Shown one piece after another: positions 2,388 to 47,599 of a stretch of DNA of 47,599 nucleotides (position 1 is its first letter; each line of letters opens with the position of its first letter). Source of the DNA: Candidatus Iainarchaeum sp. Lineage in GTDB: Archaea; Micrarchaeota; Micrarchaeia; Anstonellales; Bilamarchaeaceae. Location of the stretch: positions 1 through 47,599 of the forward strand of contig JAQTOF010000001.1 of assembly GCA_028713495.1 (NCBI GenBank). Direction: 5' to 3'. The notes below the pieces were generated by a model. The model was not told where the DNA came from. It saw only the letters and a list, made by a program, of their open reading frames with translations, and ran no database searches. The position numbers were made by a program, and so were the translations under genes.

Positions 2388-2493
2388 GTTGTCACCTTCT
2401 TATGCCCCCCCGCGGGAGCGTTTGTTGATTGCACCCCTTATCACCGAGGTATATTTTATAAAGGTATCGTCGGTGGTACGTCGTAAATGATAG

Positions 2494-2502
2494 CTTTTAA
2501 AA
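2494..2502 (+). promoter_or_regulatory. TATA-like box CTTTTAAAA for the wHTH gene (leaderless spacing)
   Basis: A/T box 23-31 nt upstream of the ATG at 2525, with no Shine-Dalgarno. Confidence 0.4.
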
Positions 2503-2524
2503 CCAGCGGACGATATAGGGCGTC

Positions 2525-2785
2525 ATGTTCTCCATGTTCGCGCGTCCGAAACCCTGCCGTATAATGACCGTGCTGCGCGACAGTGAGACGCCATGGCACT
2601 TATCGAAGCTGGCGAAAAGCAGCGACATCACTTATGTGTATGTGACCAAGCTGGTGTCCCGGCTCCAGAAAGGCGGCTTCGTAACAATAGAGCCCAAGGG
2701 CAAGAAAAGGATCGTGAAACTGACAGAGAAAGGGATGAAGGTCGCCAAGGCGATAGAAGAATTGAAGAATAGCCTGGAAGGCTAG
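2525..2785 (+). CDS. Small winged-helix transcriptional regulator (ArsR/MarR-like)
   Basis: 86 aa with a helix-turn-helix plus wing pattern: HLSKLAKSSDITYVYVTKLVSRLQKGGFVTIEPKGKKRIVKLTEKG. Confidence 0.7.
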   Translation: MFSMFARPKPCRIMTVLRDSETPWHLSKLAKSSDITYVYVTKLVSRLQKGGFVTIEPKGKKRIVKLTEKGMKVAKAIEELKNSLEG

Positions 2786-3213
2786 ACAGCCCTTATCGAC
2801 GTGCTCTTTTTGATGTAGCTGAGCACCTTCTCGTAGTTTATGTAGTGCGAGAACACGGTCACTTCGACAGGATAGTTGCCTTCTTTTGTTTGGCTGCTGG
2901 ACCACATGGGGATGTGCACTTCGATCGCGCCCCCTGCTTTGAGCTCTCCGACGCGCTTCTCGGCAGCCTTGTTTATGCAGGCAGGATCAAAGCCGAGCAG
3001 CGCATCCTTGGGCAGCAATGCATCCACAGATACGAGCTGCGGGGAATCTGAGATGTTCTTCACCTTGACCAGCAGGTTCACCGAGCTCTTGGCCTTGGCG
3101 GACAGGCGCAGAGGCGCGAACGCTATGGTCACGTTGAACGGATTTGATGTCTTGACACCTACGGGTGCTTCAGAGGACTTATCGCTTCCAAGTATAGAAT
3201 CCCAGAATCCCAT
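2782..3213 (-). CDS. Hypothetical protein, beta-rich (Ig/CARDB-like pattern)
   Basis: 143-aa ORF with alternating beta-strand pattern and coding-like composition. No recognised motif. Confidence 0.55.
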   Translation of the reverse strand: MGFWDSILGSDKSSEAPVGVKTSNPFNVTIAFAPLRLSAKAKSSVNLLVKVKNISDSPQLVSVDALLPKDALLGFDPACINKAAEKRVGELKAGGAIEVHIPMWSSSQTKEGNYPVEVTVFSHYINYEKVLSYIKKSTSIRAV

Positions 3214-3243
3214 GCTAAATCACCTTGATAGTTCCATATACCA

Positions 3244-3792
3244 TTATAGTATTAAAACGGCTGCGGCGATGACCGAAGTCCATTTGCCGGTCTTGTCAGC
3301 GATGGCTGACTGCGTTGTGTTGGTCGTGCGGACGATTCTGCCGCTCATCTTGAAGTACTGTTCGCGTTCATCCCACGCCTTCTCCGTGTCGAATTCCATG
3401 CCAAGGGTGGATGCAAGCATGGAAGCGGCCAGGTCCTCTGCGTATTCGCCTGCCTTCTCTTCTGTCTGGCCGAAGCTGTGGTGTTCGCTCAGGTAGCCGT
3501 ACATCTCTTTTTCCGAGGGGATCGCGCAGCCTACCGATGCTGCGAGCAACCGGTTCGGTTCGTTGGAGGCTATGCGTGACATGACAACGAATAGCACCTG
3601 GCCGTTCTTGAGCTCCTTGAGGCCTTCTGTTCTGGAGACTATCTGAGCGCCAGGAGGCATGATGCTCGATACCGTGACCAGGTTATATGGTGCGATGCCT
3701 GCATCGCGAAGAGCGAGCTCGAATGAAGTCAATTGTTCGGTGCTCCTGCCAACGCCTTTCGTGAAGAATACCTTCTTTGGTACAAAATCCAT
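3244..3792 (-). CDS. pdaD: Pyruvoyl-dependent arginine decarboxylase
   Basis: [13 protein letters not shown] and [12 protein letters not shown] (Ser-Ser self-cleavage site) match the PdaD family. I chose the ATG at 3792; the longer ORF to 3915 adds a non-homologous extension that overlaps the next gene. Confidence 0.85.
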
Positions 3793-21396: not shown

Positions 21397-21541
21397 AACC
21401 TAGCTAGAATGCTCTTAGCAATATAAAGGTTATCTTCGGCGAGAGGGTCCCAAAAGGTGTGGGAAATGATGCAAATAAAGGAATATTTATAAACCTTTGG
21501 CCTCATAAAGGTAATCAGATAATGGGAGAGGGTGAAACAAT

Positions 21542-22261
21542 ATGGTTGAACTAACAAGGAAAGAAGATGGAAATGATGCTAAAAAGACTGCACGTGCAGA
21601 CGGCAAAGCGCCGGTTCTCAGCGAGAGGATGAAGACAGGCCTCACTGCGGGTCTTATGCTACTCGGTGCGACTGCGGTCGGCGTCTCCAACGTGAAATGC
21701 GCTGATGACAGCAATAAGGTGGACCTGGACAGCGGTGTTGATGGCGGCCCTGATGCGGCCAGTGACACTGATACTGACATGGATACTGATACGGACTCAG
21801 ATACTGATAGCGATACGGATACTGATACCGATTCAGACACTGATACGGATACAGGCGACAGCGGAGTAGACGGCAGTGTGGATGGCAGTGTTGATACTGA
21901 TACGGATACCGATTCAGACACTGACAGCGATACGGATTCAGACACTGATTCTGATACGGACACTGGCGATGCTGGAGTTGCATGCGCCGATGCCACTACT
22001 GGTTATTTCTATGGCAGCATGTCATTAGATACCCCGGAGACAGTGGGCGGCTATGTGTTTGAATACGCCGGTCCGGACGGAACCAACGCCAAGATTGACA
22101 TAACCTGCGGTGGCAACGTCGTAGGTGGTGGCCAGCTGTCATGTCCGGAGAACACGTACACAGAATTAGAAGTGACTGTCGACGGCAAAAGGATAAAAAT
22201 CGATCCGCTCGTGGTGATGCCAGAGCTGGTCGCTGCAGAGATAGTAGTCGAAAGCCTCTGA
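21542..22261 (+). CDS. Acidic Asp-Thr/Ser-repeat surface protein, family copy A
   Basis: N-terminal hydrophobic segment, (D-T/S)n tracts, and a C-terminal ~98-aa Cys-containing domain about 90% identical to the copies at 45492 and 46357. GGGTGA Shine-Dalgarno. Confidence 0.8.
21764..21964 (+). repeat. In-frame GAY-ACN/AGY microsatellite-like tract encoding (D-T/S)n
   Basis: Visible 6-nt periodicity (gatactgacagcgatacggat...), interrupted by a [13 protein letters not shown] segment. Confidence 0.85.
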
Positions 22262-44755: not shown

Positions 44756-45414
44756 TTATGACAGACCATTCCAAGATAAACGCTGCCAAGGCCGCGCTCG
44801 CTTACGTGAAGGACGGCATGTGCGTCGGACTGGGAAGCGGCAGCACGGTCAGGGAGTTCATCAAGCTGCTGGGAGAAAAGGTCAAGCTGGGCCTGAAGGT
44901 GACCTGCGTCACAACTTCATTCGATTCCAGGATGCTCGCCATAGAGAACGGGATATTCGTGACCGAGACCGATGCCATAGAGGACATAGATCTGGCGGTG
45001 GACGGTGCCGATAGGGTGACTCCGGATGCGCTCCTCAAGGGCGGCGGAGGCGCGCTCACCCGCGAGAAGATAATAGGCTACAACGCCAAGAAATTCATCA
45101 TCATAGTGGATGAGAGCAAGGTCATGGATGGAGTGCTTGAGGGCGAAGTAAACCTTGAGGTGCTTCCTTTCGCATCGCCATTGATAATGAAGAAACTCAA
45201 GGACTACAACCCTCGGGTGCGGATGGCTAAGGCGAAGCTCGGCCCTGTGATAAGCGACAATGGCAGCTTCATAATAGACTGCCAGATGAAGCTGGAGAAT
45301 CCCAAGAAGGTCGAACAGTGGCTGAAAAGCATACCTGGTATAATAGAGAATGGCGTGTTCACTCGTTTTGACATGATAATTGTAGGCAATGAGAAAGGCC
45401 ACAGGATATTGTGA
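44752..45414 (+). CDS. rpiA: Ribose-5-phosphate isomerase A
   Basis: VGLGSGST, DGADRV and KGGGGALTREK motifs. Confidence 0.92.
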   Translation: MIMTDHSKINAAKAALAYVKDGMCVGLGSGSTVREFIKLLGEKVKLGLKVTCVTTSFDSRMLAIENGIFVTETDAIEDIDLAVDGADRVTPDALLKGGGGALTREKIIGYNAKKFIIIVDESKVMDGVLEGEVNLEVLPFASPLIMKKLKDYNPRVRMAKAKLGPVISDNGSFIIDCQMKLENPKKVEQWLKSIPGIIENGVFTRFDMIIVGNEKGHRIL

Positions 45415-45491
45415 ACGCACTCCGTAGGGGGCGTTTAAAAGCGTTTTTATACATATACCTACACAATCCTGATTGATTTGGTGTGGGTGTT

Positions 45492-46277
45492 ATGGTAAGG
45501 GAACTCATGAAAGAAGGGGTTGGGAAACCTTCTGAAAGAAATACTGGAGATGCTAATCCTAAGAATGCGAAGACAAGGACGTGGGGGAAGTGGCTGCTTA
45601 CCGCAAGCGTTACGCCAATAGTATGCTGCTGCAGCCTTATCGTTCCTCCTGCGGACAAGAAGAGCGATATGGATAGCGGGCCCGATAGTGATAGCGATAC
45701 TGATATCGATACAGACACCGATACGGATGTGGATAGCGGACCGGATACTGATAGCGATACAGACACGGACACTGATACGGATAGCGACAGTGATACGGAT
45801 ACTGATAGCGATACTGACGTGGATGGCAGCACCGACACGGATAGTGATACCGATACAGACGCTGATACGGATACCGATGCCGATACTGACACGGATACGG
45901 ATAGCGATGCGGATACAGATGGAGATACGGACGTGGACGCAGGTCTGGACGGCGGCACGGATGCTGGAGTGGACGCAGGCACTGATACTGATATCCCTTG
46001 TGCCGATGCGACGACTGATTATTTCTATGGCGCCATAACGTTAGGCACCCCAGAGACAGTGGGCGGCTATGTGTTTGAATACGCCGGTCCGGACGGAACC
46101 AACGCCAAGATCGACATAACCTGCGGTGGCAACGTCGTAGGGGGTGGCCAGCTGTCATGCCCGGAGAGCATGTATACAGAGGTAGAAGTGACGGTCGATG
46201 GCAAGAGGATAAAAATTGACCCCCTTGTGGTGATGTCAGGATCGGTTGCTGCAGAGATAATAGTCGAGAATTTGTAA
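45492..46277 (+). CDS. Acidic Asp-Thr/Ser-repeat surface protein, family copy B
   Basis: Hydrophobic N-segment ending in Cys residues, a long (D-T/S/A)n tract and the conserved C-terminal domain. I chose the ATG at 45492 after GGTGTGGGTG; the ORF track used the GTG at 45483. Confidence 0.8.
   Translation: MVRELMKEGVGKPSERNTGDANPKNAKTRTWGKWLLTASVTPIVCCCSLIVPPADKKSDMDSGPDSDSDTDIDTDTDTDVDSGPDTDSDTDTDTDTDSDSDTDTDSDTDVDGSTDTDSDTDTDADTDTDADTDTDTDSDADTDGDTDVDAGLDGGTDAGVDAGTDTDIPCADATTDYFYGAITLGTPETVGGYVFEYAGPDGTNAKIDITCGGNVVGGGQLSCPESMYTEVEVTVDGKRIKIDPLVVMSGSVAAEIIVENL
45684..45938 (+). repeat. In-frame (D-T/S/A)n coding microsatellite-like tract
   Basis: 6-nt periodicity (gatagcgatactgat...). Confidence 0.85.
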
Positions 46278-46356
46278 ACTTGTTTATAGAAATGTTTAAA
46301 AATGTTTCTGCATAAAACACAAATAGACAAAAACATTAACAAAAGGTGGGATAAAC

Positions 46357-47193
46357 ATGGTAGGACCTACAGAATTGCGTGCTGAAAGCGGCGTTGATGC
46401 TAAAAGAAGCGCTGACAAGAGTAAGGAAAAGGATGGCATTAAGGCGAAGTTTGCCAAATATCTTCTTGCTCCGGCAGTTGCTGCCACGGCAGTGGCTTGC
46501 GGGGGAAATGACAATTACATACCAGTAAATCTTACTGATGCCGGAACCGATACGGAAACCGATACTGGACCGGATAGCGATACTGACACAGATACCGACG
46601 GTGACACTGATACAGATTCTGATAGCGATACGGATGTAGACGCTGGACCTGATGCAGGGCCGGATAGCGGAACTGATACAGATAGCGATACCGATAGTGA
46701 TACGGACAGCGATACTGACACGGACACAGATACGGATACTGACAGCGATACCGATAGTGATACGGACAGCGATACGGATATCGATGGCGGACCTGATGCC
46801 AGCACTGACACGGACAGCGACACGGATTCAGACACTGATTCTGATACGGACACTGACGTGGATACTGACAGTGATACCGATTCCGATACTGACACTGGCG
46901 ATGCTGGAGTTGCATGCGCCGATGCCACTACCGGTTATTTCTACGGTACCATTCCATTAGACACTCCGCAGACAGTGGGCGGCTATGTGTTTGAATACGC
47001 CGGTCCGGACGGAACCAATGCCAAGATCGACATAACCTGCGGTGGTAACATCGTAGGGGGTGGCCAACTGACATGCCCAGAAAATACGTATACGCAGATA
47101 GAAGTGACTGTCGATGGCAAGAGGATAAAGATTGATCCGCTCGTGGTGATGCCAGGATTGGTCGCTGCAGAGATAGTGGTCGAAAACCTCTGA
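46357..47193 (+). CDS. Acidic Asp-Thr/Ser-repeat lipobox protein, family copy C
   Basis: Lipobox-like AVAATAVAC, a long (D-T/S)n tract and the conserved C-terminal domain. GGTGGG Shine-Dalgarno. Confidence 0.8.
   Translation: MVGPTELRAESGVDAKRSADKSKEKDGIKAKFAKYLLAPAVAATAVACGGNDNYIPVNLTDAGTDTETDTGPDSDTDTDTDGDTDTDSDSDTDVDAGPDAGPDSGTDTDSDTDSDTDSDTDTDTDTDTDSDTDSDTDSDTDIDGGPDASTDTDSDTDSDTDSDTDTDVDTDSDTDSDTDTGDAGVACADATTGYFYGTIPLDTPQTVGGYVFEYAGPDGTNAKIDITCGGNIVGGGQLTCPENTYTQIEVTVDGKRIKIDPLVVMPGLVAAEIVVENL
46549..46896 (+). repeat. In-frame (D-T/S)n coding microsatellite-like tract
   Basis: 6-nt periodicity, interrupted by AGPDAGPDSG and IDGGPDAS segments. Confidence 0.85.
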
Positions 47194-47284
47194 TCCTTTT
47201 TTCTTTTCATTAGACTTTCCATTTAAAAATGTTTTTGTTTAAAACACAAAAATACAATAAAATTAACAAAAGGGTGGGAGAGAT

Positions 47285-47599
47285 ATGGCAGGACCGAAAC
47301 AATTACAGTTCGATAATCCAGTGGATACTAGGCATGAAAATAATGAAAACACAAGAGGTATGAAGACGACTGTATTCGCTAAATGGCTTCTTGGGGCGGG
47401 CGCAGTTGCACTGACTGCGTGCACCAGCGTTCAGCCAGACAATGTCATACCAATACCTGATGCTGGACCGGACACTAGTTCTGACGTTGATACTGACAGC
47501 GATACAGATACGGACAACGATTCTGATACAGATAGCGATACCGATAGTGATACGGACAGCGATACTGACACGGACACAGATACGGATACTGACAGCGAT
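47285..47599 (+). CDS. Acidic Asp-Thr/Ser-repeat lipobox protein, family copy D (3' end outside window)
   Basis: Hand translation gives [43 protein letters not shown]. The upstream region and Shine-Dalgarno (GGGTGGG) parallel copy C. The ORF is open to the window end. Confidence 0.7.
   Translation, partial: MAGPKQLQFDNPVDTRHENNENTRGMKTTVFAKWLLGAGAVALTACTSVQPDNVIPIPDAGPDTSSDVDTDSDTDTDNDSDTDSDTDSDTDSDTDTDTDTDTDSD
47471..47599 (+). repeat. In-frame (D-T/S)n coding tract, truncated by the window end
   Basis: Same 6-nt periodicity. The last ~70 nt are nearly identical to part of the copy C tract (gatagcgataccgatagtgatacggacagcgatactgacacggacacagatacggatactgacagcgat). Confidence 0.8.

Follow-up and report, generated by a model that had tools for sequence, protein, structure and literature searches.

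Four paralogous, putatively membrane-tethered proteins of a Micrarchaeota genome share a homogenised C-terminal domain of a previously undescribed family

The 47,599-nt window analysed here is a complete contig (C1; JAQTOF010000001.1) of a Candidatus Iainarchaeum sp. genome (G000; assembly GCA_028713495.1), which comprises 1.02 Mb in 78 contigs and is about 90% complete; relatives of the window proteins bear the name Candidatus Micrarchaeota. An open reading frame (ORF) survey of the window detected four paralogous + strand ORFs, designated A to D following the naming of an earlier note on this DNA, that share a common plan consisting of a charged N-region, a hydrophobic segment ending at a Cys, an Asp-Thr/Ser tract and a C-terminal domain of ~95 aa (Table 1). 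The four genes probably encode exported, membrane-tethered surface proteins in which a long stalk ends in a small binding domain. Their C-terminal domain constitutes a previously undescribed family, absent from Pfam and NCBIfam, whose copies have evolved in concert within the genome. The paralogues and the architecture described in the earlier note (ORFs, N-region, Cys, tract and domain) were all recovered in the sequence, and its assignment to a surface family is supported by the succession of signal or anchor, spacer and globular end.

At the protein level the C-terminal domains of A, B and C are 81-90% identical, and A and C agree at 88 of 98 positions, in line with the 10 differences counted previously; the description of the copies as near-identical does not extend to the DNA, which is just 82-88% identical. 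A model of the gene C domain, obtained with a 17-sequence alignment (predicted local distance difference test score, pLDDT, 93.7; predicted template modelling score, pTM, 0.85), shows a compact beta domain of about 93 residues with eight consecutive beta strands. Across the family, C7 and Y30 of the domain are invariant, C48 and a V-G-G-Y-x-F-x-Y-x-G motif are nearly invariant and C60 is variable, and a disulfide between C7 and C48 is likely from this conservation. The window proteins have no match in Pfam, where nothing consistent was found across 48 family members either, and the C-terminal domain has none in NCBIfam. The best hit of a profile search against PDB sequences had an E-value of 0.015 over 26 residues, and the best fold match was found among viral predicted structures (BFVD), namely His1 virus ORF23 (template modelling score, TM, 0.60; E = 0.014). 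The domain therefore lies outside the known families of Pfam, NCBIfam and the PDB, by sequence as by fold, and its novelty withstands the refuting condition set in the earlier note, a match to a known family; the fold searches covered PDB structures and viral predicted structures, and a new fold is not claimed. Lipocalin and fatty-acid-binding-protein folds, with TM values of 0.2-0.3, were set aside as a topology-only resemblance, and a weak match to a bacterial M23-peptidase repeat protein (P0046) was taken as generic beta-repeat similarity.

Within the genome, the domain copies differ by a synonymous divergence (dS) of 0.35-0.62 and are under purifying selection, the ratio of nonsynonymous to synonymous divergence (dN/dS) being 0.10-0.22. 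This divergence, together with differing N-termini and flanks, rules out that the copies are assembly duplicates of a single gene. The differences are not evenly spread. Only 7 polymorphic sites fall within nucleotides 76-171 of the domain, against an expectation of 23 (P = 7e-6), and dS is 0-0.25 in this core vs 0.56-1.06 in the flanks. Within this region of ~96 nt, A (at 22038), B (at 46054) and C (46970..47018) share without a single mismatch a 49-nt stretch (AGACAGTGGGC...GGAACCAA), which is read as a gene-conversion tract. The earlier note had described about 60 nt as nearly identical in the three complete copies; such a stretch exists, but exact identity is limited to the 49 nt. Outside the core the copies are mosaic, in that the 5' 33 nt of the domain group copies A and C against copy B and the second domain copy of gene D (D2, see below), and C and D2 show no difference over the 3' 50 nt. 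Run-length permutation tests modelled on the GENECONV gene-conversion test gave p-values of 0.002, 0.007 and 0.0001.

An exhaustive search of 1.84 billion representative proteins returned 59 relatives at E <= 0.001, none of them above about 53% identity, and almost all are built alike, with a charged N-region, a Cys that closes the hydrophobic segment, and a low-complexity linker leading to the domain at the extreme C-terminus. A homologous-protein search with the domain region alone returned three proteins, and a 10-sequence alignment searched against genome contigs detected one other genome (the metagenome-assembled genome DeMMO3_33) and five metagenome loci. Among 301 genomes drawn from the phylum (129 genera in 33 families), the domain was detected in nine of the 21 genomes of its own genus and, weakly, in two of the six genomes of one other genus of the same family; the search of the other 32 families gave no match. 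Same-genus genomes carry the genes in tandem clusters of 3-6, and some relatives carry two or three such domains. Many members from other genomes additionally contain a middle domain of ~105-120 aa, present as subtypes M1 (L025, L028, L038, L033 and L035) and M2 (L027:3325-4620 and L040:136-1425); by hhalign this middle domain is remotely homologous to the C-terminal one (probability 95.9%). In the genome under study, two adjacent ORFs on another contig (C38:165-575 and 588-1559, - strand) give weak matches to the domain profile (E 1e-5 to 3e-6) with no evident signal peptide, and may be distant relatives.

In a tree of 55 sequences the C-terminal domains form genome-specific clades (G000, 100/99; likewise G019, G006 and G011), with 13 changes of genome label on the tree vs 40 for shuffled labels. 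The middle domains of the same proteins group by type and not by genome, those of subtype M2 from G019 and G023 proteins being sisters (100/100). An approximately-unbiased (AU) topology test rejects a clade of the C-terminal domains from the M2-bearing G019 and G023 proteins (difference in log-likelihood, delta lnL, 69.7; p about 1e-125), a group that is defined by the independent M2 feature yet was named after the tree had been seen. The concerted evolution proposed in the earlier note is thus borne out for the terminal domain by the mosaic tracts, the low-dS core, the clustering by genome and the AU test, together with an 83-nt stretch shared by the linkers of C and D (see below). One-to-one orthologue pairs persist in the closely related genomes G001 and G014, so homogenisation must be slower than recent speciation. 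At a locus of genome G002 (L041:1079-1864 and 2423-3265), two paralogues have identical C-terminal domains and different linkers, which looks like a very recent conversion or duplication.

The tract that connects the Cys to the terminal domain is 90-200 residues long. Asp makes up about half of the linker and alternates strictly with a second residue that is most often Thr, then Ser, and at times A, V or G; the number of residues in such D-x runs rises in the order of the gene letters, from 54 in A to 168 in D. At the DNA level the repeats are imperfect, with 62-80% matches according to Tandem Repeats Finder (TRF). The longest exactly periodic run at period 6 is 11-14 nt, about two units, and no exact run at period 6, 12, 18 or 24 reaches 2.3 units, those at periods 12, 18 and 24 staying below two. 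Both Asp codons, all four Thr codons and Ser codons of the AGY and TCN types are used. The tract is therefore repetitive at the protein level only, and because its codons are scrambled and exact hexamer runs are so short, high-frequency slippage is unlikely; the statement that these tracts are prone to slipped-strand length change is not upheld. The variation in length that had been suggested along with it stands between paralogues and between genomes, which is the range that the length evidence covers, and the differences between paralogues point to unequal recombination or conversion over evolutionary time.

In an AlphaFold2 model of the full-length gene C protein, residues 186-278 have a pLDDT of 85-96, and residues 1-185 have a pLDDT of 36-56 and lack secondary structure, from which the tract is predicted to be disordered. 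No Pfam match to calcium-binding Asp repeats (thrombospondin type 3 repeats, DxDxDG loops) was obtained at E <= 1 for the three complete proteins. In relatives from same-genus genomes the linkers are of DADTD type, TDGG type, Gly-rich or Lys/Asp/Ser-rich and 50-230 residues long. Since composition and length vary freely and both ends of the protein are kept, the linker behaves as a spacer. Binding of cations by the tract is possible, but is not the conserved feature of the family. Another lipobox protein of the genome (C4:22238-23503, + strand; ...STPAC followed by SS) has a D-T/A/S acidic linker followed by an unrelated domain of ~240 aa, and this use of the same linker style ahead of an unrelated domain supports the tract as a general-purpose tether in this organism.

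At the N-terminus, the charged region of A to D comprises 30-35 residues and is followed by a hydrophobic window at residues ~35-48 (mean Kyte-Doolittle hydropathy 1.8-2.2) that is preceded by K/R. Of 53 complete family members, about 50 have a Cys after the hydrophobic segment, and the residue at -1 is G, A or S in 43, so that the Cys itself is conserved family-wide. The term "lipobox proteins" used previously holds strictly for gene D only, in which the motif [LVI][ASTVI][GAS]C is present (LTAC); the corresponding residues are AVAC in C, IVCCC in B and VKC in A. About 40 proteins of the genome have typical lipobox N-termini (e.g. ...LLLGC and ...VLAGC), and genome-wide Cys occurs at the lipobox position about 3-fold more often than its background frequency would give, the strongest enrichment among the residues tried. 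For DPANN archaea in general, lipoproteins are predicted to be common (PMC12462473). The bacterial enzymes Lgt (PF01790) and LspA (PF01252) have no match in the genome, as expected for archaea. On this evidence, lipidation of the Cys is probable rather than established.

No C-terminal sorting signal of the LPXTG, transmembrane or basic-tail kind is present in the proteins, which end in ...AAEIVVENL or ...ESL, and NCBIfam gave no match to an archaeosortase/PGF-CTERM or similar C-terminal tripartite signal; the chain ends instead in one of the beta strands that make up the folded domain. At the boundary between the charged N-region and the hydrophobic segment, a conserved motif F/W-x-K/R-W/Y-L-L occurs in B (~45580-45620), C (46440-46470), D (47370-47400) and about 16 relatives, and other subfamilies have FSRFSKMKGL or PLTERIMKKAA. 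A dedicated targeting signal may be involved, which recalls the YSIRK or KxYKxGKxW signal peptides found on adhesins of Gram-positive bacteria.

Gene D runs off the end of the window. The last 98 nt of the contig (47502-47599) are identical to the first 98 nt of another contig (C8:1-98), and on the strength of this exact overlap gene D most likely continues into C8 (C8:1-1244, locus L003), giving a protein of 486 aa with two domains of the C-terminal type. In the joined gene, a long acidic tract would be followed by a diverged domain copy, a short acidic spacer and the second domain copy, D2. The first copy is about 60-64% identical to the other copies (64% to that of gene C), and D2 is 86% identical to that of gene C. 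The linkers of C and D have in common an identical 83-nt stretch (46673-46755 in C, at 47523 in D), which accounts for the assembly break in gene D with no need for population heterogeneity. Beyond gene D, C8 encodes an ACT-domain protein, a DUF59-like protein and a beta-CASP-type RNase.

Upstream of each of the four genes, a TTTAWA element, which is a putative promoter, is located 56-63 nt before the start codon, together with a GGTG-type Shine-Dalgarno (SD) site (Table 1). Over their full length the upstream spacers of C and D agree at 70% of positions, and identity rises to about 87% between the TATA-like box TTTAAAAATG and the SD site, in agreement with their likeness as noted earlier; the other upstream pairs show about 50% identity, which is background, and the promoter therefore formed part of the C/D duplication. 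A scan for sigma-70 promoters and terminators was uninformative, since the organism is an archaeon. Gene B has an alternative start at GTG 45483 (264 aa), and the ATG at 45492 is preceded by a GGTG-rich SD-like site. Long antisense or off-frame ORFs pass through the acidic tracts (45359-45982, 46515-46928 and 21487-21996, all on the - strand, plus off-frame ORFs on the + strand). Their products (SVSVS..., RYRYQ... and ILIRT...) are by-products of the GAY-ACN periodicity that could be miscalled as genes.

Table 1. Positions of the four paralogous genes, their parts and their upstream elements (contig C1 unless C8 is given)
Feature	Position	Strand	Details
Upstream of gene A	21486..21541	+	TATA-like TTTATAAACC (21486); GGGAGAGGGTGA SD-like site (21524)
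Gene A	21542-22261	+	239 aa; Cys53 at 21698-21700
Gene A acidic D-T/S linker	21701..21964	+	54 residues in D-x runs
Gene A C-terminal beta domain	21965..22258	+	98 aa
Upstream of gene B	45434..45491	+	TTTAAAAGCG (45434); GGTGTGGGTG SD-like site (45480)
Gene B	45492-46277	+	261 aa from ATG 45492; triple Cys 45624-45632 after hydrophobic segment
Gene B acidic linker	45633..45980	+	82 residues in D-x runs
Gene B C-terminal beta domain	45981..46274	+	Contains the 49-nt stretch (at 46054)
Upstream of gene C	46295..46356	+	TTTAAAAATG (46295); AAAAGGTGGGA SD site (46341)
Gene C	46357-47193	+	278 aa; Cys48 at 46498-46500 (after AVA)
Gene C acidic linker	46501..46896	+	92 residues in D-x runs
Gene C C-terminal beta domain	46897..47190	+	Sequence used for modelling
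Upstream of gene D	47222..47284	+	TTTAAAAATG (47222); AAAAGGGTGGGA SD site (47268)
Gene D 5' part	47285..47599	+	105 codons to contig end; Cys46 at 47420-47422 (after LTA)
Joined gene D domain copies, putative	C8:531-824 and C8:948-1241		Read-through of C1-C8 overlap

Taken as tethered surface proteins, the products of the four genes would be exported and the Cys would then be lipid-modified; at the least, the hydrophobic segment would serve as a membrane anchor. The polyanionic tract would serve as a long stalk on which the beta domain crosses the S-layer or projects past it, in the manner of the Ser-Asp repeats of staphylococcal Clf and Sdr proteins. The beta domain would bind a single partner common to all paralogues of a genome, either a host cell surface or the archaeon's own envelope, and because of this one shared partner the copies would have to stay alike; conversely, homogenisation of the domain within a genome suggests that such a partner exists. 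The paralogues would differ mainly in the length of the stalk, which may change by unequal recombination or conversion among the imperfect repeats on evolutionary time scales. Several observations weigh against this account or the steps leading to it. The strict lipobox is found in just one of the four window genes and seven of the 53 family members, and the charged N-region is much longer than in the typical lipoproteins of the genome, so that an uncleaved signal anchor is possible; such an anchor would yield the same topology as a lipidated Cys. No known adhesin matches the domain structurally, the best Foldseek hit in the PDB having an E-value of 0.13 and a TM of no more than 0.43. Independent expansions of recent date could account for part of the clustering of domains by genome, and the C1-C8 join of gene D depends on a 98-nt overlap that lies within a repeat.

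It is possible, if rather unlikely, that the proteins are structural components and not adhesins, tethering the membrane to the S-layer by an N-terminal lipid or transmembrane anchor and a C-terminal domain that docks on the inner face of the cell's own S-layer or on another envelope component, with the acidic linker setting and filling the spacing of the pseudo-periplasm. Cultivated Micrarchaeota possess an S-layer, the domain is always terminal in the protein, as is usual for anchoring or sorting modules, simple members lack any other payload domain, and homogenisation within a genome fits co-evolution with a single self-encoded partner. Presence of the domain in only about half of the same-genus genomes searched would, however, be odd for a core envelope component, and the members with two or three such domains do not sit easily with it either. 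An improbable alternative places the function in the acidic tract itself, which would act as a surface polyanion that binds or buffers Ca2+/Mg2+ or other metals, or nucleates mineral, the beta domain being a cap or oligomerisation module. Tracts of alternating Asp are known cation binders in biomineralisation proteins, and the Asp content of the linkers, their strict alternation and the occurrence of the same linker type in another lipoprotein of the genome would all be accommodated; nevertheless, relatives whose Gly-rich or Lys-rich linkers contain few Asp residues retain the terminal domain, so acidity is not the conserved feature, and calcium-binding repeat families such as thrombospondin type 3 gave no match.

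A contingency-repeat model built on the variation proposed in the earlier note, according to which D-T/S length shifts at high frequency between cells via slipped-strand mispairing, is very unlikely to apply. It draws on the variation of tract length among the paralogues (54-168 residues) and on the fact that the assembly broke within a tract, but the break is explained by the 83-nt stretch common to the neighbouring paralogue, all length differences are in frame, and the scrambled codons, exact runs of <2.3 units and TRF matches of 62-80% provide a poor substrate for slippage. Tethered surface proteins with a terminal binding domain on a stalk remain the preferred interpretation.

Host recognition and attachment by DPANN archaea are, to our knowledge, poorly understood, and lineage-specific surface proteins are the main candidates. 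It is tentatively suggested that the C-terminal module may be a new Micrarchaeota-specific recognition or docking domain, possibly with a new beta fold, that is kept identical among stalked paralogues for one fast-evolving partner, be it a host surface or the archaeon's own S-layer. If so, the family would represent a set of "rulers" with differing stalk lengths for one binding head and provide a handle on the attachment of episymbionts. The family offers a defined, small and confidently modelled domain suited to expression and binding tests, and a clear example of archaeal surface proteins with several domains in which concerted evolution is confined to a single module. With regard to annotation, it illustrates that protein-level dipeptide repeats with scrambled codons are not to be read as slippage-prone contingency loci.

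Among known systems, the putative transmembrane protein ORF23 of His1 virus resembles the terminal domain in predicted structure over 91 columns, but with the E-value given above and 13% identity this is no evidence of relationship. The R region of the staphylococcal MSCRAMM proteins ClfA, ClfB, SdrC and SdrD is, like the tract described here, a long dipeptide repeat with Asp at every second position and imperfect, codon-mixed coding. The Ser-Asp repeat of ClfA forms a stalk between the cell anchor and the binding domain and is required for the ligand-binding domain to stand out from the wall. The proteins described here differ in belonging to an archaeon, in having an N-terminal hydrophobic segment and Cys as anchor instead of a C-terminal LPXTG, in a C-terminal binding domain unrelated to the A domain and in a repeat that is mostly Asp-Thr. 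Against the NCBIfam Sdr/Clf models the window linkers score 30-115 bits, in the SD-repeat part only, where the curated cut-offs are 999-2500 bits; they fall outside these families, and the resemblance is an analogy by composition, not homology. Archaeal lipobox lipoproteins, which depend on AliA/AliB in Haloferax volcanii (PMC12462473), share the N-terminal signal, the Cys that ends the hydrophobic region and a flexible low-complexity tether after the Cys, although the N-region of 30-35 charged residues is unusually long here and three of the four genes have a weak lipobox or none. Families of variable surface lipoproteins on which segmental gene conversion acts, such as Vsp/Vlp of mycoplasmas, likewise consist of tandem, tethered paralogues with repetitive regions and mosaic exchange between copies, but in the present family conversion homogenises the terminal domain instead of diversifying it, and perfect repeats, an invertible promoter and a silent-copy reservoir are lacking. 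The family described here is accordingly a lineage-restricted new domain family inside a familiar class of tethered surface proteins.

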